The translations under genes and the position numbers were made by a program. Of a DNA stretch of 64,000 nt, positions 3,503-54,457 are shown one piece after another (the first letter of the stretch is position 1; each line of letters opens with the position of its first letter). The stretch is taken from NCBI GenBank assembly GCA_964349945.1, contig CAYGIH010000001.1:227718-291717 (forward strand), in the 5' to 3' direction. This stretch comes from an uncultured Candidatus Saccharibacteria bacterium (GTDB taxonomy: Bacteria > Patescibacteriota > Minisyncoccia > Phycocordibacterales > Zambryskibacteraceae). The notes under the pieces were generated by a model. That model ran no database searches. It saw nothing but the letters and a program-made list of their open reading frames with translations, and was not told the origin of the DNA.

Positions 3503-3913
3503 TTAACGCTTGCTCCACTGTGGTGCCTTTCGGGCTTTCTTCAATCCGAACTTACGTCGTTCTTTTGCTCTAGGATCTCTCTTTAAGAAGCCCTTCACCT
3601 TAAGCTTAGTTCTTAGGTTTACATCATATCCAAGGAGTGCGCGAGCGATACCATGTCTAAGAGCATCAGCTTGGGAGGAAACTCCACCTCCTTTGATTTG
3701 GGCTGTGACAGCAAATTTTTGTTCAAGGCCTGAAGCGATAAATGCTGACTTTACTGTTTGTCTTAGTTCTGCAGTAGGAAAATAATTTTCGAATTCTCTA
3801 TCGTTTATAGTGATAGAAAATTTGGATGCAGGAGTAATGCGAACACGAGCAGTAGAGGTCTTTCTTCGTCCAACAGCACCAATATATTTCTCTGAATTCT
3901 TTACTGCAGTCAT
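3503..3913 (-). CDS. rpsI: 30S ribosomal protein S9
   Basis: C-terminal '...KKARKAPQWSKR' S9 signature. 136 aa. Follows rplM. Confidence 0.93.
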   Translation of the reverse strand: MTAVKNSEKYIGAVGRRKTSTARVRITPASKFSITINDREFENYFPTAELRQTVKSAFIASGLEQKFAVTAQIKGGGVSSQADALRHGIARALLGYDVNLRTKLKVKGFLKRDPRAKERRKFGLKKARKAPQWSKR

Positions 3914-3914
3914 A

Positions 3915-4259
3915 TTATTCTTTAATGGTTAAGTTAATCATCATCTTCTGTCGAAGTTTATTTTTGGGAAGCATTCCAAGTACTGCCATTCTCAAAACCT
4001 CCTTACCTCCTTTAGAAGCAATCATTTTCTCCATAGACTGGAGTTTGAGTCCTCCTGGGTAACCTGAATGAGTGGCGTATTTCTTGTCTATAAGTTTCTT
4101 TGAATTAAAACTCATTTTACCAGCATTAATTACCTCAATTTTTACTGGAGCAATAGTATTTTTAGAAAAATCAGTTCTGTTCTTACCCATAAGCAAGACA
4201 GCAAGCTCAGTAGCAAGTCGTCCGGGCTTTTTGTCTGTGGCGTCGATTGTGTGTTTCAT
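3915..4259 (-). CDS. rplM: 50S ribosomal protein L13
   Basis: 114 aa L13-like sequence directly upstream of rpsI (canonical rplM-rpsI pair). Confidence 0.85.
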   Translation of the reverse strand: MKHTIDATDKKPGRLATELAVLLMGKNRTDFSKNTIAPVKIEVINAGKMSFNSKKLIDKKYATHSGYPGGLKLQSMEKMIASKGGKEVLRMAVLGMLPKNKLRQKMMINLTIKE

Positions 4260-13608: not shown

Positions 13609-14700
13609 TTAACTTATAATTCTATTAATTATCGCTCCACCAATACAATGTTCTCCATCGTAAAACACTATAGACTGACCTTCATTTACTCCCCTAGTTG
13701 GTGACAATAAATCAACAGTATTTGAGTCCATTTTAATAGATATCTTCTCTCCTCTATATCTTATTCGGGCACATAGATTTTTTATTTCCTTATTAACACT
13801 AAAATTAATATTTTTTAATTCTATTAGTCTTGGAGAAAAATTTAATACCTCTACATCGCTATTCGCAACTGTAACGGTGTTCTTCTTCATATCCTTTGAA
13901 ACAACATAATAAGCATTACTTGTTGGACTTTTTATTTCTATATCAAAACCGTGCCTTTCACCCTTGGTATAGTAAATAGCTCCTTTATGAGTACCGATTA
14001 TTTGACCTGATTTGTTTAAAACATTTCCAGGTTGAATGTTTGTGAAGTGTGGCAAAAAATCCTCTAAAGATACTTCTCCAAGGAAACATATACCTTGGCT
14101 ATCCTTTTTGTTTGAAACAGGTATTTCGTATTTTCTTGCGAGCTTCCTCACATATGCCTTATCCAAATCACCAATAGGGAAAATCACATGCTCCAAGTCA
14201 TCTTTTGTTAGTGTCCAAAGGAAATAACTTTGATCCTTCTCCTTATCTACTCCTTCAAATAGCTTTTGATTAATATTTCTTGCATAATGCCCTGTGGCTA
14301 TATAATCAGCTCCTAATTCTTTTGCCTTTCGCCAAAATGCTCCAAATTTAATTTCCCTATTACATAACACATCTGGATTTGGTATTCGACCATCTATATA
14401 CTCATTTATCATATAGTCAGCAACTTCCTTTTTATATTCTTTTTCAAAATCAAAAAAAATGAATGGAATATTCAACTTTGCAGCCACTCTCATTGCATCA
14501 CGCCTCTCATCCTTCCATGTGCAAGGTAAAAATTCAGGCGACCAAACCTTAATAAACACACCAGTGACGTCGAATCCCTGATCTTTCAGTAATGCTGCAG
14601 AAACAGCACTGTCTACACCACCAGACAGTCCAACGAAGACTTTTTTATTTATTGAGATATTTTGCTTTATTTGCTTTGTGCTCATCAAAAGTTCTTGCAT
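13609..14700 (-). CDS. mnmA: tRNA-specific 2-thiouridylase MnmA
   Basis: PP-loop 'VGLSGGVDSAVSAALL'. MnmA catalytic Cys region. 363 aa. Confidence 0.9.
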   Translation of the reverse strand: MQELLMSTKQIKQNISINKKVFVGLSGGVDSAVSAALLKDQGFDVTGVFIKVWSPEFLPCTWKDERRDAMRVAAKLNIPFIFFDFEKEYKKEVADYMINEYIDGRIPNPDVLCNREIKFGAFWRKAKELGADYIATGHYARNINQKLFEGVDKEKDQSYFLWTLTKDDLEHVIFPIGDLDKAYVRKLARKYEIPVSNKKDSQGICFLGEVSLEDFLPHFTNIQPGNVLNKSGQIIGTHKGAIYYTKGERHGFDIEIKSPTSNAYYVVSKDMKKNTVTVANSDVEVLNFSPRLIELKNINFSVNKEIKNLCARIRYRGEKISIKMDSNTVDLLSPTRGVNEGQSIVFYDGEHCIGGAIINRIIS

Positions 14701-17942: not shown

Positions 17943-20183
17943 TTATATCACAATATTGACAATTTTGCCAGCAACAATGATAATTTTTTTAATCTTCTTG
18001 TGGTTGAGCCATTTTTTTACTTCTTTTTGCTCTAAAACCATTTTCTTCAATTCTTCGTCAAAAATGTCAATATGAACCTTTATAGTAGATCTTAATTTGC
18101 CATTTATTTGAATTCCCATGATTACTTCCCTGTTTGTGAGTTTATTTTCATCAAATTTTGGCCACTCTTTATCAAATATTGAAGTTGAATTATTTATTTG
18201 AAGATTAAGTTCCTCACAAACATGAGGAGCAAATGGTGCTAATAATGAAATTAAGATTTCATATTCTTTCTTTGAAATACTTTCTCGCTTTTCTAGTGTG
18301 TTTGCATAAATCATTAAACTAGAGATGGCTGTGTTAAAACCAACATTCTCTAAATCATCTGTAACCTTTTTAATAGTTTGATGCATTAATATCTCATGTT
18401 CAGAAATGATTTCAGCATTTCCTGAATCAATTTTATTTTTTAGTTTCCAGACTTTTTCTATAAATCTCCTTGGACCAACAAGTGAACTTTCATTCCAAGC
18501 AATCGCTTGTTCAAATGGACCCATAAACATCTCATACAAACGAAGAGTGTCGGCACCAAAGCGCCTTATGATGTCATCTGGGTTGATAACATTACCAATT
18601 GACTTACTCATCTTTTCCCCTCCTTCCCCTAATACTAGTCCATGAGATGTTCTTTTTTTATACGGTTCGCTAGTGGGCACCAAACCTATATCGAACAAAA
18701 ACTTATTCCAGAAACGAGAATACAAAAGGTGCAGTGTGGTGTGTTCCATACCTCCGTTATACCAATCCACAGGCATCCAATGCTCTAGTTTTTTCTTCGA
18801 AGCAAACATTGTGTCATTTCTAGGATCTGCATAACGCATAAAATACCAACTAGACCCAGCCCAGTTTGGCATAGTGTCTGTTTCTCTTTTTGCAGCACCT
18901 CCACAGCTTGGACAACTGGTATTTACCCAAGAATCTATGGCTGCGAGTGGTGACTCTCCATTGTCTGTAGGTTCATATTTAGCCACCTCCGGCAACAAAA
19001 CAGGTAAATCTTCCTCTGGTACTGGCACGTTGCCACATTTAAAACAGTGTATAACTGGAATAGGTTCTCCCCAATATCTTTGTCTACTAAAAACCCAATC
19101 TCTAAGTTTGAACCTTGTAACTTTCTGTCCAAAATCCTCAAACCCCGCTTCTTTGTAATCTTTTATAATCGGTAGTTTGTATTTCTTTGCAAATTCCATA
19201 TCTCTCTCATCATCTGCAGGCACTCCCATAATGGCGCCTGTGCCATAATCTGCTGAGACATAATTCACTACCCAAACTGGTATTTTTTCACCACTGGCAG
19301 GATTTGTTACTACGAGCCCAGTATCAACACCAACTTTTTCTTTGTTTTCCCTATCTGTATCAAGAACTACACCAAAATCATCTCCAATCAATTTCTTTGA
19401 AATTTCTGGAGCAATAGCAAGAAAAGTGGCACCAAAGATGGTGTCAGGACGAGTGGTAAAAACTTTTATTTCTTTATCACCATTAAAGACAATCTCCGCT
19501 CCTTCTGACTTGCCTATCCAATTCTTTTGACTTAACTTTACTCTCAGAGGAAAATCTACTGACTCCAAATCCTTGTCTAACCTATCTGCATATTTGGTTA
19601 TGGAGAGCATCCATTGCTCCTTCTCTTTCTTTTCAACCTTTGTACCACACCTCTCACAACAACCATTCACCACTTCTTCATTGGCCAAACCTATTTTATC
19701 TTTTGGACACCAATTGATGGCAATCTTGGCTTTATAAGCTAAATCATGTTTAAGGAATTGCAGGAACAACCACTGGGTCCACTTATAGTATTTTGGATCC
19801 GTTGTATTTATTTCCCTCGACCAATCAAACGAAAGACCAAGAGCTTTTAATTGTCTTCTAAAAACATCGGTATTTTCTTTAGTAACAATTTTTGGGTCTT
19901 TGCCTGTCTTGATGGCATAGTTTTCTGTGGGTAAACCGAAAGCATCCCAACCTATTGGGTAAAGGACGTTGTAGCCCTCCATACGACGTTTACGAGCTAG
20001 TGCGTCTAATGCTGTATAACTCCTTACATGGCCTACATGGAGACCATCTCCTGATGGATATGGAAACTCAACCAACACATAATATCTGGGCTTATTTGAG
20101 TTTTCTTCGGCTGTGCCTGATTTATCCTCTTCCCAAATTTTTTGCCATTTTGATTCTATTTGTTTTGGATCGTAATCCTGCAT
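17943..20183 (-). CDS. leuS: Leucyl-tRNA synthetase (compact, 746 aa)
   Basis: 'PYPSGDGLHVGHVRSYT' HIGH region, 'KMSKSIGN' KMSKS motif, CP1 editing domain. Confidence 0.95.
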   Translation of the reverse strand: MQDYDPKQIESKWQKIWEEDKSGTAEENSNKPRYYVLVEFPYPSGDGLHVGHVRSYTALDALARKRRMEGYNVLYPIGWDAFGLPTENYAIKTGKDPKIVTKENTDVFRRQLKALGLSFDWSREINTTDPKYYKWTQWLFLQFLKHDLAYKAKIAINWCPKDKIGLANEEVVNGCCERCGTKVEKKEKEQWMLSITKYADRLDKDLESVDFPLRVKLSQKNWIGKSEGAEIVFNGDKEIKVFTTRPDTIFGATFLAIAPEISKKLIGDDFGVVLDTDRENKEKVGVDTGLVVTNPASGEKIPVWVVNYVSADYGTGAIMGVPADDERDMEFAKKYKLPIIKDYKEAGFEDFGQKVTRFKLRDWVFSRQRYWGEPIPVIHCFKCGNVPVPEEDLPVLLPEVAKYEPTDNGESPLAAIDSWVNTSCPSCGGAAKRETDTMPNWAGSSWYFMRYADPRNDTMFASKKKLEHWMPVDWYNGGMEHTTLHLLYSRFWNKFLFDIGLVPTSEPYKKRTSHGLVLGEGGEKMSKSIGNVINPDDIIRRFGADTLRLYEMFMGPFEQAIAWNESSLVGPRRFIEKVWKLKNKIDSGNAEIISEHEILMHQTIKKVTDDLENVGFNTAISSLMIYANTLEKRESISKKEYEILISLLAPFAPHVCEELNLQINNSTSIFDKEWPKFDENKLTNREVIMGIQINGKLRSTIKVHIDIFDEELKKMVLEQKEVKKWLNHKKIKKIIIVAGKIVNIVI

Positions 20184-20713
20184 TAGATTGAATCTTTAAA
20201 TTTCCTTACAGCAATCCAAATAAGGATACCAAGAGCTATGGCAAGAATAATAACTTTGATTAGATTGTCTGCACTGGTCCAATATCGCACTGAAGCAATG
20301 ATGAAAGACAAAACACCTGCAATTGATAATGCTTGGCTAATAACTAAATTATTCTTTAGATAATTTCCTAACAAGACACAAAGTGCACCAAGAATAACTA
20401 GAGTAACAAAAACATTTCTATCATAATTCTTTCTTGCTGCATCATATTCTGCTCTACAAGTGAATTGAAGGTCACAATAACCACTGGCTTCCATCTTTTG
20501 TGGAGCATAGGCGGTGTTTTGGTTCCATTGACCACCCTTCGAGACACAGAGGTCTTTTGTGTTTGCTTCTACGACCTGAGCCGTATTAGGACAATAAACA
20601 TCATATGCAGGCTCTTTATAAACTAAAGAAAGAGCATAATTAAAAAACATATTAAGGACTATCACTATACCAATAATAACTGACCACTTAAGAATTTTTG
20701 ATTGATTATTCAT
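20183..20713 (-). CDS. Hypothetical small membrane protein with a Cys-containing exoplasmic loop
   Basis: Three predicted TM segments and a Cys-rich loop ('CPNT...CVSKGG...CDLQFTC'). Confidence 0.45.
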   Translation of the reverse strand: MNNQSKILKWSVIIGIVIVLNMFFNYALSLVYKEPAYDVYCPNTAQVVEANTKDLCVSKGGQWNQNTAYAPQKMEASGYCDLQFTCRAEYDAARKNYDRNVFVTLVILGALCVLLGNYLKNNLVISQALSIAGVLSFIIASVRYWTSADNLIKVIILAIALGILIWIAVRKFKDSI

Positions 20714-28644: not shown

Positions 28645-28698
28645 CCGAGTACTATACCATTTAGCAAACAAAAAGCAATACAATCAAGCCTAAATATG

Positions 28699-28769
28699 TG
28701 GACCTAGCGGGAATCGCACCCGCGATTCGTCCATGCCATGGACGCGTGTTACTACTATACTATAGGCCC
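28699..28769 (-). tRNA. tRNA-Ala (anticodon GGC)
   Basis: Cloverleaf with 7-bp acceptor stem carrying the G3:U70 alanine identity pair, anticodon loop AUGGCAU, and a GC-rich T-stem GCGGG/CCCGC. The T-loop UGCGAUU is slightly non-canonical. CCA is not encoded. Confidence 0.6.
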
Positions 28770-28908
28770 AGAATAGCTATTAGCTGATAGCTTTTTAGCT
28801 ATTTAGTTTTAATACTTTATCAAAATAACATTTGAAAATAAATCAATTTCCCTGTATTCTAGTAATTCAGCTAAAAAAGCTAACAACTGAAAGCTGAAAG
28901 CTGTTTTA

Positions 28909-28984
28909 GGGCCCTTAGCTTAGTTGGTAGAGCGCCTCATTTGCAATGAGGAGGTCACCGGTTCGAATCCGGTAGGGTCCACCA
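28909..28984 (+). tRNA. tRNA-Ala (anticodon UGC), CCA encoded
   Basis: GGGCCCU acceptor with G3:U70, D-arm AGCUUAGUUGGUAGAGC, anticodon loop UUUGCAA, T-arm GGUUCGAAUCC, 3' ACCA. Confidence 0.9.
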
Positions 28985-29615: not shown

Positions 29616-30608
29616 TTATTTAGTTTCGCGCGCCAGTACGAGTACATGCTCCAAAAATCTCTCAGGACTTGAGCCTATATAATCCAACGATTTATGTAAG
29701 AGCGAATCTTTAGAAAAATCAGGTAAAGCTCCAGTTTCTAAGACATAAACCTTGCCTTGCGGGGTGAGAATCAAATCAGAATATGAATAATGCCTTAAAC
29801 CTAATGCTTCATGGGCCTTCTTAGCTGCATGTTCTAAAATCTTCTTTTCATTAGGAGAGAAACTGGTTTCGTGTAGATATTCATGAACAGAATTAAATTT
29901 TTTATCATAATCAGGCATTAGCTGATTACGTTTTGGGGTAAATACTTCAACAGGAACAAGTGCATAATGTTTTTCTCCTCTAAATCCCTCTATGACTCCA
30001 CATCTAGCTTCCCTACCCCTTATAAATTCTTCAACAATCACTTTTGGAGAATATTCTAAAGCTTCATCAATATATTTGGCTAACTCTTCAAATGTATAAG
30101 CCAATCTAACTCCTCGTCTATAATTCTCACTACTAGGTTTAATTACCAAGGGGTGCATATAATTCCTAAATATTTCCACCAATTTTTCTAATTCTTCTTC
30201 TCCTGTAAGTATTTCAAATCTTGGAGTGAGAAGTCCATAGTTTGAATAAGCATTTTTAGCCAAATCCTTGTTTAGCGCCATAACTGATCCAAGCGCTGTT
30301 GAACCTGTATAAGGTTTGCTCATTGATGCAAGCATTTTTTGAACACTACCCTCATCGGCAAATTTACCTTGAAGTGCATTAAAAGCAATGTCTGCATATT
30401 CAAGAGCCTTATGCGGTGGAACTTTTACTCCCTTTAAATGCCATTCACCATTTTTGGATATAAAAATATCTATTGGTTCATAATTATCAAGTTTTTCTCT
30501 AAGAAGATAAAGTGCATGCTCTCCTGTTTTAAGAGACGCATCATACTCCTCTGAAGGTCCACCACGTAAAACCGCAACCTTAATTTTTGAATTAGAAGAA
30601 ATACCCAT
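29616..30608 (-). CDS. ddl: D-alanine--D-alanine ligase family ATP-grasp enzyme
   Basis: 'KVAVLRGGPSEEYDASLKTGEHAL' Ddl N-terminal domain. ATP-grasp core. 330 aa. Confidence 0.75.
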   Translation of the reverse strand: MGISSNSKIKVAVLRGGPSEEYDASLKTGEHALYLLREKLDNYEPIDIFISKNGEWHLKGVKVPPHKALEYADIAFNALQGKFADEGSVQKMLASMSKPYTGSTALGSVMALNKDLAKNAYSNYGLLTPRFEILTGEEELEKLVEIFRNYMHPLVIKPSSENYRRGVRLAYTFEELAKYIDEALEYSPKVIVEEFIRGREARCGVIEGFRGEKHYALVPVEVFTPKRNQLMPDYDKKFNSVHEYLHETSFSPNEKKILEHAAKKAHEALGLRHYSYSDLILTPQGKVYVLETGALPDFSKDSLLHKSLDYIGSSPERFLEHVLVLARETK

Positions 30609-35127: not shown

Positions 35128-35156
35128 GCAGCCTAGATATTGGGCTGCTTTTTCTT
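35128..35156 (+). terminator. Intrinsic terminator on the plus strand (GCAGCC-loop-GGCUGC followed by a U-run)
   Basis: 6-bp GC stem with an 8-nt loop, followed by TTTTTCTTTTC. The uvrB stop codon lies inside it on the opposite strand. Confidence 0.6.
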
Positions 35157-37166
35157 TTCTAATTTTGCTTCGAGCATTCTGATTTCATCCCTTATAAGTG
35201 CTGCTGTTTCAAAGTCTAAATCTTTCACCGCTTCTTCCATTTCTTGCCTCTTCACTTTTATAAATTTCTTTGGATTTTTATTAAACAAAGCTTCATCAGT
35301 TTCCATGAGCAATCCAACAGCATTATGATGTTCTCGCTCAAGGGTGTCTGTAATATCTTTAATTTTCTTTTTGATACTAATCGGAGTGATGTTGTGCTTT
35401 TTGTTGTAGGCCATTTGTATTTTCCTTCTTCGAAGCGTCTCACTCATTGCTCTTTCTATAGATCCAGTGACATTGTCCGCATAGAGAATTACTTTGCCCT
35501 CAAGGTTTCTGGCTGCACGACCAATAATTTGAATCAATGATGTTTCTGAACGAAGAAAACCTTCTTTGTCTGCATCAAGTATTCCTATGAAAGTCACTTC
35601 AGGAAGATCTAACCCCTCTCGTAGAAGATTCACTCCAACCAAACAGTCAAACGTGCCCTTTCTAAATTCTGTAAGGATCTCTATGCGTTCTATGGTTTTT
35701 ATCTCACTATGTAAATACCTTGCCTTTATCTTTTTCTCCTTTAGGTATTCAGCCAAATCTTCGGCCATTTTCTTAGTCAGAGTAGTAGCTATCACTCGTC
35801 CACCTTTCTTAATAGCTTTTTCTGTTTCTTCTATGAAGTCTTTCACTTGCCCTTCATACTTACCTTTGCTCTGTATTGGGCGAACTGTCACTTCTGGATC
35901 AATAAGACCGGTTGGACGAATCACCTGCTCCACCAATTCCCCACTATGTTCTAGTTCAAATTTTCCTGGAGTAGCGCTGGTAAATATTATCTGGCCGACT
36001 CTTTCCTTAAATTCTTCTATCCTAAGAGGTCTATTGTCTCTAGCACTAGGTAATCTAAAACCATGTTCAATAAGAGTATCTTTTCTGGATTTATCTCCCG
36101 CATACATACCTCCGATTTGCGGGAGTGAGACGTGGGACTCATCAATGATAGTCAAAAAATCTGGTGTACCATCTAGTTTATGAGGAAAATATGAAAGCAA
36201 AGTGTCTGGAGCTTCCCCAGGTCTTCTGTTTGAAAAAAGCCTGGAATAATTTTCTATCCCATTGCAATAACCCACCTCTCGAATAAGTGCGAGGTCATAA
36301 GAAGTTCTGCGCTTTAATCTTTCAGCTTCGAGTAACTTCCCTTCTTTTTTGAATTTTTCTAATTGTTCTTCTAGTTCTAATTTGATTTTTTGTATTGCTT
36401 TCTTGTTTGTATCATCATTAGTGATGAAGTGCTTCGCAGGGAAAAGGAAAAATGAATCTGGTTCACTAATAATTGTTCGACTGACAGCATCAATACGTTT
36501 TATAGATTTGATTTGTCCTTCTTCTAATTCAATTCTATAAATTATCCTTTCTCCTGTGGGCATTATCTCTACTGCATTACCTAAAGCCCTAAATGTCCCT
36601 GGCTTCACATCAGCATTTGTTCTAGAAAAATGAATATCTATAAGATCGCGTATAAAATCAGCACGACTAAGTTTGTCCCCTTTCACTATCTTCATGTTCA
36701 CCCTCTCATATTCTGCTGGAGAACCAAGGCCATAAATACAAGATACAGAAGCTACAATTATTACGTCCTTCCTAGTAAGTAAGGCTTGGGTCGAAGCATG
36801 ACGAAGTCTATCTATCTCTTCATTAATCATCGCCTCCTTCTCAATATAAGTATCTGTGACCGGCATATAAGCCTCTGGCTGATAGTAGTCATAGTAAGAC
36901 ACGAAGTAGTGCACTGCATTGTCTGGGAAGAATTCTCGATATTCTTGGGCTAACTGTGCCGCAAGGGTTTTGTTGTGCGCAATGACCAAGGTTGGCTTAC
37001 CAATTTTCTCTATCACATTCGCCGCGGTGAAAGTCTTTCCAGAACCAGTCACGCCCAAAAGAGTTTGATATCGTTTACCTTTCCTTAGTCCTTCGACCAA
37101 CTCTTTGATCGCTTTTGGTTGGTCTCCAGCTGGTTTAAAGTCATTTTTTATCTTAAAAACTGTCAT
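35133..37166 (-). CDS. uvrB: Excinuclease ABC subunit B
   Basis: 'LLGVTGSGKTFT' Walker A, helicase motifs, C-terminal UVR domain ('ALIRDEIRMLEAKL'). Confidence 0.95.
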   Translation of the reverse strand: MTVFKIKNDFKPAGDQPKAIKELVEGLRKGKRYQTLLGVTGSGKTFTAANVIEKIGKPTLVIAHNKTLAAQLAQEYREFFPDNAVHYFVSYYDYYQPEAYMPVTDTYIEKEAMINEEIDRLRHASTQALLTRKDVIIVASVSCIYGLGSPAEYERVNMKIVKGDKLSRADFIRDLIDIHFSRTNADVKPGTFRALGNAVEIMPTGERIIYRIELEEGQIKSIKRIDAVSRTIISEPDSFFLFPAKHFITNDDTNKKAIQKIKLELEEQLEKFKKEGKLLEAERLKRRTSYDLALIREVGYCNGIENYSRLFSNRRPGEAPDTLLSYFPHKLDGTPDFLTIIDESHVSLPQIGGMYAGDKSRKDTLIEHGFRLPSARDNRPLRIEEFKERVGQIIFTSATPGKFELEHSGELVEQVIRPTGLIDPEVTVRPIQSKGKYEGQVKDFIEETEKAIKKGGRVIATTLTKKMAEDLAEYLKEKKIKARYLHSEIKTIERIEILTEFRKGTFDCLVGVNLLREGLDLPEVTFIGILDADKEGFLRSETSLIQIIGRAARNLEGKVILYADNVTGSIERAMSETLRRRKIQMAYNKKHNITPISIKKKIKDITDTLEREHHNAVGLLMETDEALFNKNPKKFIKVKRQEMEEAVKDLDFETAALIRDEIRMLEAKLEKKKQPNI

Positions 37167-39439: not shown

Positions 39440-41353
39440 ATGAAAAGAGAACGAAAAAGCGACGTACTTAAAGTAGTAACTGTCATCCCTGTGAGTAAAT
39501 CAATGCTTCGTTCGACCCTTTCTTACTTCACCAAAGATGATGTCTCTATCGGTTCATTTGTAAAAATTAGCATTAGAAATAAAACTAGTCTCGGTTTGGT
39601 GACGAATGTGGCTAGCGCAAGATCAGTAAAATCTGACTTGAAAAATTCCTCCTTTGCACTAAAGAAATTATCAAAAGGAAACTCTGCAAAACTTTCTGCT
39701 GGGTTTATTAAAGCTTGCGAACAAACTGCCTTTTATTATGCAACCACGACTGGAAGCGTCCTTAGTACTATATTACCTAAATTTTTTCTTGAATTTCCTG
39801 AACTTATCCAAAGTTACAAAAAAAATGAAAATAAATCAGATACATTGCATGAACCTTATCTAATTCAATTACCACTAGAAGAAAGATTTGGCGAGTATAA
39901 AACTATAATTCGTGAATCATTTGCACGGAGCAGTTCTGTACTATTCATTGCTCCCACTATTGAGGAAGCTCAAAGATCATATGAAATCTTATCCAAAGGT
40001 ATACATGAGTACGCTTTCACTACCGTTGGCCAAAGCCAGAAAAAACTAAAAGAAATATTTATTGAATGTCACAAAGAGAAACACCCAATTATGCTTATTA
40101 CTACTCCGTCTTATGGGGCATTTGATAGACCAGACTTAAATACTATCATTCTAGAAAGAGAAAATTCTCGGTCATATAAAACTCTTTCTAAACCATATAT
40201 AGACATAAAAACATTTTTTGAAATGCTGGCCAAGGAAACTGGCAAGACACTAATTCTCGGTGATTCTGTACTATCTATAAAATCCCTTTGGTTAGAAAAG
40301 CAAGGCAAGTTTGCTGAGTTGTCTCCATTGAAATGGAAAACTCGCTTTGATACACAGACAAGGATAATAGATATGAAGGCACCACTCATTAGTGAAGATG
40401 AGGTTCAAAAATTTAGAATACTTTCAAAGGAAATTATTGAACTTATTAATAAGTCTATTAGTGAGAAAAAAAAAGTTTTTCTCTTCGGAACTCGTAAGGG
40501 ATTGGCTCCATCAACAATATGTGTTGATTGTGGAAATTTACTTGAATGTTCAAATTGCAAAGCGCCTTTGGTACTCCATGAGAGCAAGGGAAAGGAGAGA
40601 ATTTATCTTTGTCATGCCTGTGGAGCCAAAAGAACTTCTGAGACCAGATGCGACAAATGCAATAGTTGGAATTTGAATCCATTGGGAATAGGTATAGATA
40701 AAATTGCGAACGAAGTTAGAAATGAATTTCCCACAGCAAATGTGTATGTCTTAGACAAAGATAAAGCCACCACACCTCAAAAAGCTTCAGCAATTATTAA
40801 TAAATTTCTAAATGATGACCACGGTATACTCGTGGGAACTGAATTAGCTCTACTTTATACAGAGAAAGTTCCTTATGTGGGTGTAATATCACTTGATTCA
40901 TTATTTTCTATCCCAGATTTTAGTGTTAATGAAAGAATATTTTATTTAGTAAACAGAATCATAGAAAAATGCGAATCTCAATTTATAATTCAAACAAGAA
41001 ATATTGGACGAGAAATCCTTAGTCTAGCTACCAGAGGTGACATTCTCGAGTTTTATAGAAAAGAAATTCAAGAAAGGGATGAATTACAATATCCACCCAT
41101 CTCTCTATTCATTAAGGTTATCACTGAAGGTGCATCAATAGATCTAGAAAAAAAATCTATCTTCCTGCTTCAATGTTTTGGTGAACACAATCCAGATTTT
41201 ATTAAATCGAAGGGTATGAAAAGTGGCAAAATTAGCCTTTCGATGATCATTAGATTAAAGCGCGGTGATTGGCCAAATAAAGACTTGATTGAAAAATTAC
41301 TTTTGCTAAGTCCTGAATTTTTGATTAAAGTAGACCCTGAAAGCATCATATGA
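39440..41353 (+). CDS. PriA-like primosomal helicase homologue with degenerate Walker A/B but intact Cys-rich zinc-ribbon region
   Basis: Cys-rich region 'CVDCGNLLECSNCKAPLVLH...LCHACGAKRTSETRCDKCNS' matches the PriA lobe-2 insert. Motif Ia-like 'VLFIAPTIEEAQ'. Walker A position reads 'FGEYKT' (no GxGKT), and the DEEH-box position reads 'ERENSRSYK'. Confidence 0.6.
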   Translation: MKRERKSDVLKVVTVIPVSKSMLRSTLSYFTKDDVSIGSFVKISIRNKTSLGLVTNVASARSVKSDLKNSSFALKKLSKGNSAKLSAGFIKACEQTAFYYATTTGSVLSTILPKFFLEFPELIQSYKKNENKSDTLHEPYLIQLPLEERFGEYKTIIRESFARSSSVLFIAPTIEEAQRSYEILSKGIHEYAFTTVGQSQKKLKEIFIECHKEKHPIMLITTPSYGAFDRPDLNTIILERENSRSYKTLSKPYIDIKTFFEMLAKETGKTLILGDSVLSIKSLWLEKQGKFAELSPLKWKTRFDTQTRIIDMKAPLISEDEVQKFRILSKEIIELINKSISEKKKVFLFGTRKGLAPSTICVDCGNLLECSNCKAPLVLHESKGKERIYLCHACGAKRTSETRCDKCNSWNLNPLGIGIDKIANEVRNEFPTANVYVLDKDKATTPQKASAIINKFLNDDHGILVGTELALLYTEKVPYVGVISLDSLFSIPDFSVNERIFYLVNRIIEKCESQFIIQTRNIGREILSLATRGDILEFYRKEIQERDELQYPPISLFIKVITEGASIDLEKKSIFLLQCFGEHNPDFIKSKGMKSGKISLSMIIRLKRGDWPNKDLIEKLLLLSPEFLIKVDPESII

Positions 41354-41886
41354 AAACCTTAATCAAGCAAATGACGGCACCTGTTCTGAGAGAGCAAGCA
41401 AAACACGTCAAAATAGAAGAGATAAAAACCAAAAAAATCCAAACAATTTTGGATAAGATGAAAAGCGCCCTCAAAAAGGAGGAGGATGGCGTGGCTATAG
41501 CCGCGCCCCAAATAGGAGAAGGTTTACGAATTTTTATAATTAGTGGTCGAACAATTTCGATTATAAATAACGAAGGTGAAGATATAGACAAAAATATCAT
41601 ATACCCCGATCAAGTTTTCATAAATCCAATAATTAAAAAACTATCAAAAACAAAGAAGAAAATGGAGGAAGGATGTCTTTCTGTTAGGTGGTTATATGGA
41701 CAAGTAGAGAGAAGTACAAAAGCCACAATAGAAGCCTATGATGAACACGGTAAAAAGTTTCAGAAAGGAGCCTCTGGACTAATGGCTCAAATATTTCAAC
41801 ATGAAGTAGATCACTTGAACGGTATACTTTTTATTGATAAAGCAGAAAATATAGAGAATATTCCTCCACAAAAAAATGCAAAATAA
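41350..41886 (+). CDS. def: Peptide deformylase
   Basis: 'GVAIAAPQIG', 'EGCLSV', 'QHEVDHLNG' motifs. Confidence 0.92.
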   Translation: MKTLIKQMTAPVLREQAKHVKIEEIKTKKIQTILDKMKSALKKEEDGVAIAAPQIGEGLRIFIISGRTISIINNEGEDIDKNIIYPDQVFINPIIKKLSKTKKKMEEGCLSVRWLYGQVERSTKATIEAYDEHGKKFQKGASGLMAQIFQHEVDHLNGILFIDKAENIENIPPQKNAK

Positions 41887-42619
41887 TATTCGTTTTATTT
41901 ATTTTGGTTCATCAGAATTTTCTAAACATGTTTTAAACGAACTTGAAGCCAAAGGGTTAGTGCCGGTTTTGTCCATTACTTCTGCTCATGAACCATTGGA
42001 TAAAGAAAAGCTTGAATCAATGAAAGCTGACGTATTTATAGTGGCTTCTTTTGGGAAAATCCTCCCTGATTGGCTCATATATATGCCGAAGTTTAAGACC
42101 TTGAATGTTCATCCATCTCTCCTCCCTAAACTTCGTGGCCCCTCACCTATTCAGGGAGCAATTTTATCTGAAGAAAAAACCGGTGTTACTATACAGAGAA
42201 TAAATGAAAGGATGGATGAAGGACCGATTATTGCTCAAAGAGAAGTGGAACTATCAAGCAACATTGGTTATATAGAAGCAGAAAAAATATTGGCTAAAGT
42301 TGGAGGAGAAATGCTTATAGAAATTTTACCTAAATATATAAGTGGTGAAATAAAAGAAGTTGAACAATCGAGTGAAGGTGCTACTTACACAAAGATGATA
42401 AGGAAGGAAGATGCTGACATCTCAAATGACTCTGCAGAAATTGCTCTAAGAAAAGTCCGTGCATATGAAGTTTGGCCCAGAGCTCGCAAGGGAGAATTAG
42501 TTATCACTAAAGCCCATATTGAGGGTGACAAATTCATGCCAGACAGAGTTATTCCTCCGGGTAAGAAAGAGATGGATTATAAAGATTATCTTCGAGGCAA
42601 CCCAAAAGTAATTTTATAA
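41876..42619 (+). CDS. fmt: Methionyl-tRNA formyltransferase (compact)
   Basis: 'LNVHPSLLPKLRGPSPIQGAIL' formyltransferase core. Follows def. Confidence 0.85.
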   Translation: MQNNIRFIYFGSSEFSKHVLNELEAKGLVPVLSITSAHEPLDKEKLESMKADVFIVASFGKILPDWLIYMPKFKTLNVHPSLLPKLRGPSPIQGAILSEEKTGVTIQRINERMDEGPIIAQREVELSSNIGYIEAEKILAKVGGEMLIEILPKYISGEIKEVEQSSEGATYTKMIRKEDADISNDSAEIALRKVRAYEVWPRARKGELVITKAHIEGDKFMPDRVIPPGKKEMDYKDYLRGNPKVIL

Positions 42620-42628
42620 AAGTAATAA

Positions 42629-42840
42629 GCGCCCACTCGTGAGAGGGGCGCTGCAATAATAATAATTATGTGTGTCAGTGACCGAAGTCACAGAAAGAGC
42701 GAGTGGTAGTGCGGTGTTCGCTGACACCGCACTACCCGGCGACCCATCGACTATACTTCAGTCCGCGCCTAGGCGTAATGCTACTACGGCTGGCCATGAG
42801 AGGGTCACCGAAACCATCCAAGTGAGGTAATTTTCACCCC
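42629..42840. ncRNA. Candidate structured RNA: GC-rich, hairpin-dense intergenic region between convergent fmt and hpf; class unassigned
   Basis: GCGCCC...GGGCGC hairpin (42629..42651). Perfect 12-bp hairpin GTAGTGCGGTGT-ucgcug-ACACCGCACTAC (42706..42735). GC far above background; no ORF. Confidence 0.3.
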
Positions 42841-42926
42841 ACTCCTCAAGTATACACCTTTCATGGGTTTTGTCAAGCACTTCTATTGATATGTGAAAAT
42901 AGGCCTATTTTGAGCCATTTTACAGA

Positions 42927-43322
42927 CTAAAGCTTTGGTTTTCTAAAACGCTTTAATGCCCATGGGAAATCTTTCATTAAATCTTTGATAGCTCTCTGCC
43001 CACGACGAAGTAGTTTGAGTCTTCTACTCTTCCCTTGTACTAATTCTCTCTGTACATCTGCCTCTACGAGGTCTATGGCCGCATATAAATCTTCGGCTTC
43101 AGCTACTGAATATATATCGAGCCCTCCACCAGTAACATTTACCTCTGCCTTAAACACATCACCTCCTTTATGATGTTTTGTTGTCTTCCCTACTTCAATT
43201 CTAAATATTACTCCATCGGATCTTTTGTCTACAAACTTCTCAAGGGTTTTAATTTTCTTAGTAGCATAATCTGTAATTGCGTCCGTTAACTCTATTCCTG
43301 TTCCCTTGAGATTTATTTTCAT
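42927..43322 (-). CDS. hpf: Ribosome hibernation promoting factor (HPF/RaiA family)
   Basis: 'MKINLKGTGIELTDAITDYATKKI' S30AE family N-terminus. Confidence 0.85.
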   Translation of the reverse strand: MKINLKGTGIELTDAITDYATKKIKTLEKFVDKRSDGVIFRIEVGKTTKHHKGGDVFKAEVNVTGGGLDIYSVAEAEDLYAAIDLVEADVQRELVQGKSRRLKLLRRGQRAIKDLMKDFPWALKRFRKPKL

Positions 43323-51718: not shown

Positions 51719-53227
51719 TTGGAAAACAAAAAGCAAGTTATTCTATCTAAAACTAATTACATTCTCTACAGAGATTGTCCGAAGAATACTTGGCTCAAAA
51801 TCCATAAACCAGACGTTTACTTCAAGTCAGAGCTTTCTGATTTTGAAAAATCAATTATAGAAACAGGAAACGAAGTAGAATTAGAAGCTAGAAAACTGTT
51901 CCCTACTGGTGTTCTCATCGAAGGACGTGATGAAGACGCTCAAAAATTAACGGCAGATTATATTAGAGAAAAACAGCCAACATTCTTTCAGGCTGTTTTT
52001 TCTATTAATGACTATCTGGCAGCTACAGACATTTTGAAATTTCATCCAGAAACTAATTCGTATTCTATATACGAAGTGAAAGCTTCAAATAGTGTAGATT
52101 TAAAGGTTCATATTCATGACCTGGCCTTTCAGGTTAATGTCTTACGACAAGTTGGGTTAACAGTCACAAGTGCCGTTGTTATCCATTTGAATCCAGAATA
52201 TGTAAGAGATGGAGAACTTGAGATTACTAAGCTCTTTCAGGAAACAAATGTTACTAAACAGGTCGAAGAAATTTCTATGGAGGTTTGGGATGAAATGAAT
52301 TTTGCCTTAAAGTATTTGAGAGATGAGAATGAACCCACTGGTCCATGTTCATGTCTACGCAAGGGCCGTTCGAAACACTGCACTACATTCCACTACTCAA
52401 ACCCTCAAGTACCTGATTATAGTGTCCATGATATAGCCAGAATTGGTTTGAGTAAGGTTAAACTTACTGAGCTTGTTGACTCAAACATCTTTCACATCAA
52501 AGATGTGCCTAGAGAATTTGAACTATCAGAAACCCAGAGAAATCAAATTGATTCATATGTTTTCGACAGAGTTATAATTGACCATGACAAAATCAAAGAA
52601 GAATTTGAAGATTTAGTGTTCCCTCTTTATTTCCTAGACTATGAGACCTTCCCCGCTGCCATACCACGCTTCGATGGATTTTCACCCTATCAGCAAATTC
52701 CCTTTCAATATTCTCTACATGTTGTAGACAAGCCAGAAAGTGAGCCAAAACATTTTGAATTTCTCTATACAGAAAACGGTGACCCTAGTCACTCCTTTGT
52801 AGAGTCAATGCAAAAACACATAGGTAAAGTTGGAAGTATAATTGTCTGGCACAAAAGTTTTGAATGTAGCAGAAATAAGGAATTAGCCACAAGAATACCC
52901 GAAGCAAAAAGTTTCTTAAATGACATTAATAACCGCACTTATGACCTTGAGGATATCTTCAAGAAGCAATACCATGTCCACAAAGACTACAAAGGTAGTA
53001 GCTCTATCAAGAAAGTTTTACCAGTTCTTGCTCCAGATTTGTCATATAAGAACCTAGAAATCCAAGAAGGCGGCAGCGCAACTCAAGCATGGAACAAAGT
53101 TGTCACTGCAGAATTAGAACCATTTGAACGGGAAACAATTATAGATAACCTTAAAAACTATTGTAAGTTAGATACTTACGCCATGTATGCTATTTGGAGA
53201 GAACTCAATAGTCTAATATCCTCTTAG
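51719..53227 (+). CDS. PD-(D/E)xK (Cas4/RecB-like) nuclease fused to a C-terminal DUF2779-type RNase-H-like exonuclease domain
   Basis: N-terminal '[10 protein letters not shown]' followed by 'IYEVKAS' ExK core. Central Cys cluster '[12 protein letters not shown]'. C-terminal 'LYFLDYETF' and '[13 protein letters not shown]' DEDD-like motifs. Confidence 0.6.
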
Positions 53228-54457
53228 ACGGTTTATTTTATCGTGCTGACGAATCTTCTCATGAGCCTTGGCTTCGATTTGTCGAATACGCTCTCGAGTG
53301 ACACCAAAGACTTTTCCCACTTCCTCTAGTGTATGAGTATATCCATCAAGGAGGCCGTGGCGCATTTCAAGAATTTTACGTTCCTTTGGAGGAAGATCAT
53401 TAAGGATTTCTCTCACTTGGTCCTGAATAATTCTACGAGAGGATTCCATATCTGGAGAAAGAATTTTGTCATCAGCGATGAAATCTCCGAGCTTGCTCTT
53501 ATCATCTCCGTCATCCCCCACTGGGTTCTCCAAAGATACAGTTGATTGATCAATCTTTTCAATTTGATAAATCTTATCTACATCAAGGTTCATCTCTGTG
53601 GCAATTTCCTCCTGTAGAGGCTCACGACCCAAATCTTGTGTTAAACGTCTTACAACTTGTTTATATTTAGCAATAGTTTCCACCATATGCACTGGCACGC
53701 GGATAGTCCTAGATTGGTCGGCCAAAGCACGTGTAATAGCCTGTCTAATCCACCAAGTGGCGTAAGTAGAGAACTTATAGCCCTTTGTCCAATCAAACTT
53801 GTCTACGGCCTTAAATAGCCCCAAATTACCCTCTTGGATGAGGTCTAGGAGAGTTAGATCAGGTGAACGGTTAGCGTATTTCTTGGCTATAGAGACAACC
53901 AAACGGAGGTTAGCCTTGGCTAGGAGGTTTTTAGCATCCTCATCTCCGGCTTCAATTCTCTTTGCCAGTTCCTTCTCCATATTCCCAGAAATAAGTGGGT
54001 ACTGCCCAATTTCCTTGAGATACATTTGGATAGAATCGTATGCAGAATCAGACTTTCCATAAGAATATTTTTTACCTGTTTCCTCTACGGGCATTTCTAG
54101 TAATCCTCCACTTTCAAGTACATCAATGCCTAATATGTGAAGTTTGGTGTATAGCTCGTCTAAGAAAATAATATCATTTTCAATAGTTGGAAATTCCTTT
54201 AATATTTCATCATAAGTAACAAATCCTTTTTCTTTACCCCTTGATGTTAGCTTATTAAGCTTATGTAGAATATCCAAATCTTTTTTAGAAGTAGAAACCT
54301 TTTTAGTTTTCTCAACTTTTTTTGAAACCTTTTTGGCTTTAACTTTTTTAACAACTTTTTTCTTTATGCTTTTTGCCTTTTTGGAAACCCTTTTAGCCAA
54401 CTTTTTAGCGGGCTTGGTTTTCTTATTCAACTTTTTTATTTTTTTATTTTTGGGCAT
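53213..54457 (-). CDS. rpoD: Primary RNA polymerase sigma factor RpoD with Lys-rich (histone-H1-like) N-terminal extension
   Basis: Region 2 '[40 protein letters not shown]'. Region 4 '[22 protein letters not shown]'. N-terminal about 55 aa is K/A/V-rich. Confidence 0.93.

Follow-up and report, generated by a model that had tools for sequence, protein, structure and literature searches.

Results

A GC-rich, structured spacer between convergent fmt and hpf

The DNA analysed here (the window, a stretch of 64 kb) belongs to a genome of the Parcubacteria/Minisyncoccia (CPR) group that is AT-rich (37% GC), and the best homologues of its fmt gene are found in MAGs annotated as Minisyncoccia or Parcubacteria. 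In this window fmt and hpf converge on a spacer of 307 bp, with the following landmarks:

41876-42619, plus strand: fmt (methionyl-tRNA formyltransferase, PF00551), flanking the predicted RNA and lying outside it
42616..42651, minus strand: predicted intrinsic terminator, consisting of the hairpin GCGCCCCUCUCACGAGUGGGCGC (42629-42651) and the tail UUAUUACUUUUAU (42616-42628), from sequence and fold
42616..42843, minus strand: predicted RNA of ~225 nt, placed from the promoter and terminator positions
42849..42854, minus strand: putative -10 box TATACT, a sigma-70 consensus match
42871..42876, minus strand: putative -35 box TTGACA, a sigma-70 consensus match
42927-43322, minus strand: ribosome hibernation factor of the hpf/raiA family (PF02482), the upstream flank, on the same strand as the RNA

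The spacer holds the GC peak of the entire window, 0.60 in 120-nt windows (42621-42859) against a background with a mean of 0.373 and an sd of 0.056, and 100-nt windows reach up to 0.60 at 42700-42799. An earlier note on this DNA had pointed to a block between the two convergent genes with a GC content far over background and with a GCGCCC...GGGCGC hairpin right past the fmt stop, and we find all of these features, the hairpin occupying 42629-42651 and starting 10 nt past the stop codon. The same note had described a perfect 12-bp stem at 42706..42735; the stem is indeed perfect, but it measures 13 bp (42705-42717 with 42724-42736, separated by a 6-nt loop), and by our own estimate ~0.006 such inverted repeats would be expected by chance in 64 kb. 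Compared with dinucleotide shuffles, the region folds with a z of -6.15 (minus strand, the predicted RNA) or -4.35 (plus strand), 0 of 200 shuffles being as good, and the z of the RNA body alone is -6.4. The GC and structure signal of the spacer is real and well beyond chance.

For comparison, relatives' contigs were gathered via homologues of fmt and hpf, and 80 loci from species-representative genomes were added. A GC-rich block of the same layout is present in seven lineages: the window; L097; L102/L103; L003/L004/L009; L005/L006/L089/L096; L015; and L018. The L097 copy is partial, with an fmt 87% identical to that of the window, and the hpf of L102/L103 is likewise 87% identical. In all seven lineages the putative RNA gene comes next after hpf, or after hpf and a 53-aa ORF, on the same strand, and is convergent with fmt; the predicted length of the RNA ranges from ~180 to ~420 nt. 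The ~53-aa ORF that follows hpf in L005 (1813-1974), L007 and L015 is conserved, apparently encodes a membrane protein and is missing from the window. The RNA promoter of L005 and L015 has its -35 box inside the last codons of this ORF.

Signals for transcription from the minus strand

The near-consensus sigma-70 promoter TTGACA-16-TATACT (42876..42849, minus strand; 11 of 12 consensus matches, 16-nt spacer) would place the start of the RNA at ~42843-42841, 6-8 nt past the -10 box, and the RNA would end in the U-rich stretch overlapping the fmt stop codon. TTGAC(A/C) is equivalently placed in L102, L003, L005, L015 and L018, and the form TTGAC(A/C)-16/17-TAT... is seen in the six lineages sequenced across it, the window included (L097 is cut short); the promoter block AGTGCTTGACAAAACC...GAAAGGTGTATACT is near-identical among the window, L102 and L003. 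TATAAT-type boxes are clearly used in the host genome, often just 5-10 nt ahead of start codons, and such TATAAT-like boxes are found 5' of the ATG of, for example, 13609-14700, 20183-20713, 29616-30608, 35133-37166, 39440-41353 and 53213-54457. Shine-Dalgarno motifs are rare in the window, where most genes are without one and look leaderless, and the sequence suggests that leaderless mRNAs are widespread in this organism.

At the other end of the block, the minus-strand GCGCCC hairpin is followed by UUAUUACUUUU, and the predicted terminator abuts the fmt stop. The earlier note had seen no U-run on either side, which is right for the plus strand, where no U-tail follows this hairpin, and wrong for the minus strand, where the hairpin runs into its U-rich tail; having given neither strand, promoter nor tail, the note had also missed what now points to a gene on the minus strand. 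On the hpf strand, six of the seven lineages share the stem GCGCYC...GRGCGC and a U-rich tail past it, and the terminator of L102 is a different GC-rich hairpin, GGCGCUUCC...GGAGGCGCC, which has a U-rich tail too. The minus-strand tails after the hairpin in relatives read UUUUUC, UAUUUUC, UUUCUCUUU, UAUUCUUUU or CUUUCUUUU. A simple terminator scanner made no call at this site, and the likely cause is the 11-nt loop left by the plain 6-bp stem, a loop outside the scanner's rules.

What a bacterial sRNA gene is expected to have is thus found here as follows: a promoter of its own, as predicted from the sequence; an intrinsic terminator, in the form of a U-tailed GC-rich hairpin on the minus strand of all seven lineages; and no conserved coding capacity, as judged from six-frame translations of five lineages, which share no ORF on either strand. 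The promoter, the U-tailed hairpin ~225 nt from it and a hairpin loop that reads UUCG on the minus strand only together define a candidate minus-strand gene running from ~42843 to 42616, and we infer that the locus is transcribed into a stable RNA of ~225 nt.

A 9-nt direct repeat, AAAAGTAAT, occurs at 42604-42612 and 42618-42626. Its first copy forms the last codons of fmt and the second, just past the stop, forms the U-rich tail of the minus-strand terminator; the repeat may be a trace of the joining of the RNA module to fmt.

Parts of the predicted RNA and conservation of its pairing

From its 5' end, the predicted RNA would comprise the following parts, all on the minus strand, before the terminator listed above:

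42820..42844, minus strand: 5' hairpin GAGUGGGGUGA AAA UUACCUCACUU, in MFE and centroid structures; part of the 5' half that varies between subtypes
42737..42810, minus strand: central multi-branch region closed by CGGUGACCC / GGGUCGCCG, in the MFE structure
42764..42770, minus strand: helix 1, 5' strand AGGCGCG, pairing with 42695-42701 (6 pairs)
42749..42763, minus strand: hairpin 2, GACUG AAGUA UAGUC, with one compensatory change against L102
42705..42736, minus strand: hairpin 3, the inverted repeat, a perfect 13-bp stem with loop CAGCGA
42692..42701, minus strand: pyrimidine segment CGCUCUUUCU, in which CGCUCUU is the 3' strand of helix 1, then UUUCU
42678..42691, minus strand: small clamp hairpin GUGAC UUCG GUCAC, found in all seven lineages
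42652..42677, minus strand: AU-rich linker from clamp hairpin to terminator, 9 to ~110 nt across lineages and variable in sequence

The closest complete relative is L102, and 108 columns of the 3' domain were aligned for the window, L102 and the partial L097. Over 29 proposed pairs, 72 of 72 cells are paired, with no disruption, and all pairs of the four helices are kept in L102. Seven pairs vary, two of them by compensatory changes from window to L102 (U-A to C-G, once in hairpin 3 and once in hairpin 2) and five by one-sided changes to or between G.U. Helix 1 has three variable pairs, changed on one side (A-U/G.U, G-C/G.U) and still paired, and both of its strands are also present in L018; that AGGCGCG and CGCUCUU recur together in the window, L102 and L018 would be because helix 1 pairs them. 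Hairpin 3 shows, against L102, its one compensatory change and two changes to G.U, and its stem is identical in L097. Sliding the 3' partners by 1-3 columns lowers the pairing to 29-64%, and in a shuffle control of the three-sequence alignment, weak with three rows, 83 of 500 shuffles reach the observed value. On the plus strand each of these G.U pairs would turn into a C.A mismatch, so that the substitutions agree with an RNA made from the minus strand.

The covariance model built on the 3' domain (R1) finds L005 full-length (29 bits, E 2e-6) and L015 (21 bits, E 4e-4), and its matches in both are colinear, running from the helix-1 strand through the hairpin(s) and CGCUCUUUC to the clamp hairpin. 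In the R1-fitted alignment of six rows, pairing holds in 97.5% of the cells, both sides are changed in 8 pairs and 0 of 500 shuffles do as well, figures to be read with the fact that the rows are fitted to the structure model and include one palindrome artefact. The covariation rests on few events, in seven lineages of which only two or three are of the window subtype. Conservation of the stems across relatives was the check that the earlier note had set for its proposal of a structured RNA, and the compensatory and wobble changes that keep the stems in relatives bear it out.

At the pyrimidine segment (42692..42701) there is an exact identity of 26 nt with L005, and the segment itself reads CGCUCCUUCU in L097, CGUUCUUUCU in L102, GUUCUUUCC in L015 and CGCUCUUUC in L018. 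Its UUUC(U) tract is predicted to be mostly unpaired in four of five RNAs (probabilities mostly 0.7-0.99, with some positions lower), the exception being L015 (0.27-0.63). Directly 5' of the clamp hairpin, the motif YUCUUUC is present in six of the seven lineages; L003 has no CGCUCUUUC tract and carries a U7 run in its place. The clamp hairpin itself follows the form GUGRC-loop-GYCAC, its fourth pair alternating between A-U and G-C across the seven lineages: it is found as GUGAC/GUCAC with loop UUCG or UAAG, as GUGGC/GCCAC (L018) and as GUGGCC/GGCCAC (L003).

As modelled, the helix CGGUGACCC / GGGUCGCCG would form a pseudoknot with helix 1 or be an alternative to it; L102 could form an analogous helix, GGCGAUCCC / GGGGUCAGCC, as read off its sequence. 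A 10-nt complementarity between the loop of hairpin 3 and the sequence past the clamp hairpin is not kept in L102, is probably due to chance and was set aside.

Patchy distribution and dissimilar bodies

The convergent layout of fmt and hpf is widespread among relatives, and most lineages have no spacer between them, the genes abutting or overlapping by 4 nt; this tight overlap looks ancestral. The block is absent from the same spacer in many relatives, very close ones included (L104, L007, L098, L099). Presence and absence are interleaved on a neighbour-joining tree of fmt, a single-gene tree that is indicative only: L104 and L007 lie without the block inside a clade of carriers, and the carriers L015 and L018 stand beside sisters that are without it (L016, L021).

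Only ~20-30 nt are conserved across all lineages. The 5' halves, or bodies, of different subtypes show no significant similarity (local-alignment z <1 against shuffles, 2.5 for L015-L018), despite the fact that the Fmt proteins of the window, L003, L005 and L097 are 83-87% identical. In L003 the promoter, the clamp hairpin and the terminator are kept around an unrelated body of ~290 nt, and L097 is a mosaic of a window-type body and a terminator of the L005/L003 type. The bodies of L005, L003 and L015 are mildly structured (z ~ -1.7). The shared 8-11-mers UUCGGUGAC, AGGCGCGG and GGUGACAGCAA were tried as a common core and rejected, the bodies aligning no better than shuffles, except marginally for L015-L018; one shared short motif holds up, the AGGCGCG of the 5' strand of helix 1. 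Metagenomes scanned for the 21-nt 3' motif yielded nothing but further copies of the L005 type and chance matches in coding regions of high-GC organisms.

At the same junction, L017 (2740-3090), L022 (3330-3850) and L074 (3320-3620) hold unrelated small protein genes, partly GC-rich, and the convergent fmt/hpf junction looks like an insertion hotspot. In its patchy presence, its bodies that differ between subtypes and its place at a permissive junction occupied elsewhere by other genes, the RNA gene behaves like a piece of accessory DNA, subject to gain, loss or exchange.

Two further observations were made in relatives. In L003, a 136-aa ORF without Pfam match has been annotated across the RNA locus (3746-4156), on the opposite strand and through the terminator hairpin, and is probably spurious. 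In the distant relatives L031 (3804-3980), L045 (3985-4110) and L071 (4015-4150), a second GC-rich block lies between hpf and tRNA-Asn and starts with the same bases as the downstream tRNA-Asn, TTCCGGTGTAGCTCAGTGGTGGAG...; ARAGORN made no call in it and Rfam gave no match at E<=0.1, and the block may be a tRNA copy, degenerate or interrupted, or else some other unclassified RNA.

Known RNA families, coding capacity and repeats

Scans with Rfam 15 gave no family for the spacers of the window, L015 and L018, either at the gathering threshold or at E<=10; only tRNAs or noise were returned for L003, L005, L007 and L008 at E<=1, and for the whole 64-kb window at E<=0.5. The families without a match include RNase P, 6S, SRP, tmRNA, raiA, HEARO, riboswitches and ribozymes. 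ARAGORN calls neither a tRNA nor a tmRNA in the fmt/hpf spacer, here or in the relatives; its three tRNA predictions for the window all lie outside the spacer. Two divergent tRNA-Ala genes, GGC (minus strand) and UGC (plus strand), lie 140 bp apart at 28698-28984 of the window.

Mechanical ORFs of 37-52 aa do exist in the spacer, and the earlier note's statement that it holds no ORF fails on this point, but none of them is kept in relatives, so that its substance stands. A plus-strand small protein, with GAAAGAG/GAAGGAG as ribosome binding site before a GTG, was rejected, no start or frame being conserved in L005, L015 or L018. The R1 model has no second copy in the 64-kb window and none in 83 other fmt-hpf loci, and neither terminal inverted repeats nor flanking target duplications are found at the block; an origin from a repeat, MITE or IS was rejected on these grounds. 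A phage or viral origin was likewise rejected, as phage and viral collections contain no match. Our literature search retrieved no published description of this RNA or of similar lineage-specific RNAs of CPR/Patescibacteria, and the literature on ncRNAs near hpf in CPR/Parcubacteria holds nothing that describes it.

The earlier note had offered two alternatives, one of the missing housekeeping RNAs or a novel RNA, and had asked for an Rfam scan. With no family found even at E<=10, the first is disfavoured, the RNA being moreover absent in close relatives and specific to a subtype in its 5' half; a novel structured RNA agrees with the conserved promoter, terminator and stems and with the lack of a conserved ORF.

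Discussion

The spacer between fmt and hpf most likely holds an unclassified, lineage-restricted gene for a structured sRNA, on the strand of hpf. The fuller reading, in which this is a stand-alone minus-strand gene whose product is a structured small non-coding RNA of ~225 nt, trans-acting and accessory, seems to us probable, though far from certain. Transcription would start from the gene's own sigma-70-type promoter (TTGACA-16-TATACT) and would stop at an intrinsic terminator with a U-rich tail right next to the fmt stop codon. The transcript would combine a lineage-variable 5' half with a conserved 3' domain of ~100 nt, in which helix 1 (AGGCGCG/CGCUCUU) would enclose hairpins 2 and 3 and be followed by UUUCU, the clamp hairpin, the AU linker and the terminator. 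An exposed tract clamped by helices near the terminator is the usual platform where trans-acting sRNAs meet a chaperone or a purine-rich target, and it is the likeness of the pyrimidine tract to this platform that favours an RNA acting in trans, a step that we propose with low confidence. The single-stranded pyrimidine tract, held between stable hairpins, could contact a purine-rich RNA target or an RNA-binding protein, and the variable 5' domain may provide stability or a specificity of each lineage; whether regulatory or protein-binding, the specific mode of action is put forward tentatively, as a model. The sequence CUCUUUCU, which we take to resemble the 3' end of 16S rRNA, had been considered as an anti-Shine-Dalgarno mimic, and this was downgraded: with few Shine-Dalgarno sites in the genome, most genes of the window being without one and leaderless-looking, a model in which an anti-SD seed blocks ribosome binding sites is weakened.

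Among known sRNAs, the nearest in organization are DapZ and MicL, enterobacterial sRNAs embedded in the 3' end of a gene and expressed from an internal promoter. Like them, the hpf-side RNA gene begins immediately past the 3' end of the coding sequence upstream of it, or within that end, with a predicted promoter of its own, a Rho-independent terminator and a conserved single-stranded tract near the terminal hairpins. Unlike them, and without any sequence relation to them, the hpf-side RNA is far more structured and GC-rich, and it is conserved in its 3' domain, its 5' half being swapped between lineages.

The comparison that its neighbourhood invites is with the raiA motif RNA, whose independent transcripts of ~200 nt, usually beside raiA (hpf-family) genes, have six covarying stems, two pseudoknots and ~51 highly conserved nucleotides (PMC10861870). 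The two RNAs share a structured fold, a length of ~200 nt, a promoter and a terminator of their own (predicted in our case) and the neighbourhood of a raiA/hpf-family gene. In spite of these similarities, the hpf-side RNA departs from the raiA family in every respect tested: (i) the raiA covariance model gives no match, either for the window, L015 and L018 at E<=10 or for L003 and L005 at E<=1. (ii) The raiA RNA usually lies upstream of raiA and downstream of comFC, whereas the hpf-side RNA lies downstream of hpf in all seven lineages. (iii) The hpf-side RNA is without the ~51 invariant nucleotides, the stems P1-P6 and the two pseudoknots. The two also differ in distribution: the hpf-side RNA occurs in Parcubacteria/CPR, where it is patchy and appears accessory, whereas the raiA RNA is found in other phyla (Bacillota, Actinomycetota), clade-wide.

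A role like that of raiA is a separate matter from membership. An abundant structured scaffold RNA with a protein or the ribosome as its partner, working alongside HPF and not as a base-pairing regulator, would suit the strong promoter, the complex fold with its possible pseudoknot and the constant place behind hpf, and by analogy of position a link to ribosome hibernation is possible. Yet most hpf-bearing relatives are without the RNA, no large set of invariant nucleotides is present, the gene lies on the wrong side of hpf for the analogy and the raiA model does not match, and the shared location may merely reflect a single insertion site; we regard such a role as unlikely. A different proposal is that the block was carried along or left behind by a mobile or recombining accessory element; settled in a safe junction hotspot and of little or no function for the cell, it would spread among relatives through recombination. 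Presence/absence polymorphism among very close relatives (L104 and L007; L018/L015 against L016/L021), the mosaic of L097, the unrelated protein genes at the junction in L017, L022 and L074 and the apparently ancestral 4-nt overlap are in its favour. What speaks against it is the lack of terminal inverted repeats, target duplications, a second copy in the window or the 83 other loci, matches in phage or viral collections and any nearby transposase or integrase, and also the survival of promoter, terminator and base pairs through substitution, which argues for selection on an expressed RNA; we give this proposal, too, only a small chance.

Very unlikely, in our judgement, is a purely cis-acting 3'-end structure, a bidirectional terminator or insulator that would keep convergent transcription of def-fmt and hpf apart and would have no RNA product of its own. 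It would explain why GC-rich hairpins stand between convergent genes right past the fmt stop, and the hairpin could stop fmt transcripts too; but a conserved near-consensus promoter points into the block, ~150 nt of further conserved structure are superfluous for termination, no U-tail follows the hairpin on the plus strand, an fmt terminator exists in L005 besides the block, and in many relatives fmt and hpf overlap without any spacer. A highly diverged housekeeping RNA (RNase P RNA, 6S, SRP RNA or tmRNA) is harder still to believe. Helix 1, with its one mismatched position, may loosely resemble the P4 helix of RNase P, and none of the four RNAs is found elsewhere in the 64-kb window; the window, though, covers just a part of its contig (at least 381 kb), and those RNAs may lie elsewhere. 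None of the conserved RNase P core motifs could be recognised in the sequence. A GC-rich structured RNA with a strong promoter in an AT-rich genome does resemble 6S and CPR RNase P RNAs, and diverged CPR RNase P RNAs that fall below Rfam thresholds are documented (PMC8172020). Nonetheless, targets of 326-501 nt gave no match to RNase P RNA, 6S, SRP RNA or tmRNA at E<=10, ARAGORN called no tRNA or tmRNA in the spacers, and the MFE and centroid structures are multi-branched and not the rod with a central bubble of 6S. RNase P RNA is moreover essential and expected in every related genome, and a body that is not conserved between subtypes, in an RNA missing from the fmt/hpf spacer of many relatives, close ones included, would sit badly with a universal catalytic core.

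A bolder variant of the preferred reading, that of a trans-acting accessory sRNA, would make it a modular RNA exchanged horizontally among CPR, in which a constant promoter and 3' scaffold (helix 1, long hairpin, pyrimidine tract, clamp hairpin and terminator) frame a swappable 5' domain of 100-300 nt. The 5' cassettes would then give specificity as guide, decoy or sponge, for instance in symbiont-host or anti-phage interactions, via a partner protein encoded elsewhere. We rate this variant as a long shot.

CPR RNA biology is poorly known, even the housekeeping RNAs of the group are atypical (PMC8172020), and the family described here is small. The locus is nevertheless a clean and testable candidate, with a strong predicted promoter, a defined terminator, a paired 3' domain of ~100 nt and a presence/absence polymorphism which, occurring among close relatives, would permit comparative and co-occurrence analysis. 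Should the RNA be only a lineage-specific sRNA, its value would lie in better annotation, as with the spurious-looking ORF laid over the L003 copy; should it be functionally tied to hpf, it would be of wider interest, as an echo of the still-unexplained raiA motif RNA.
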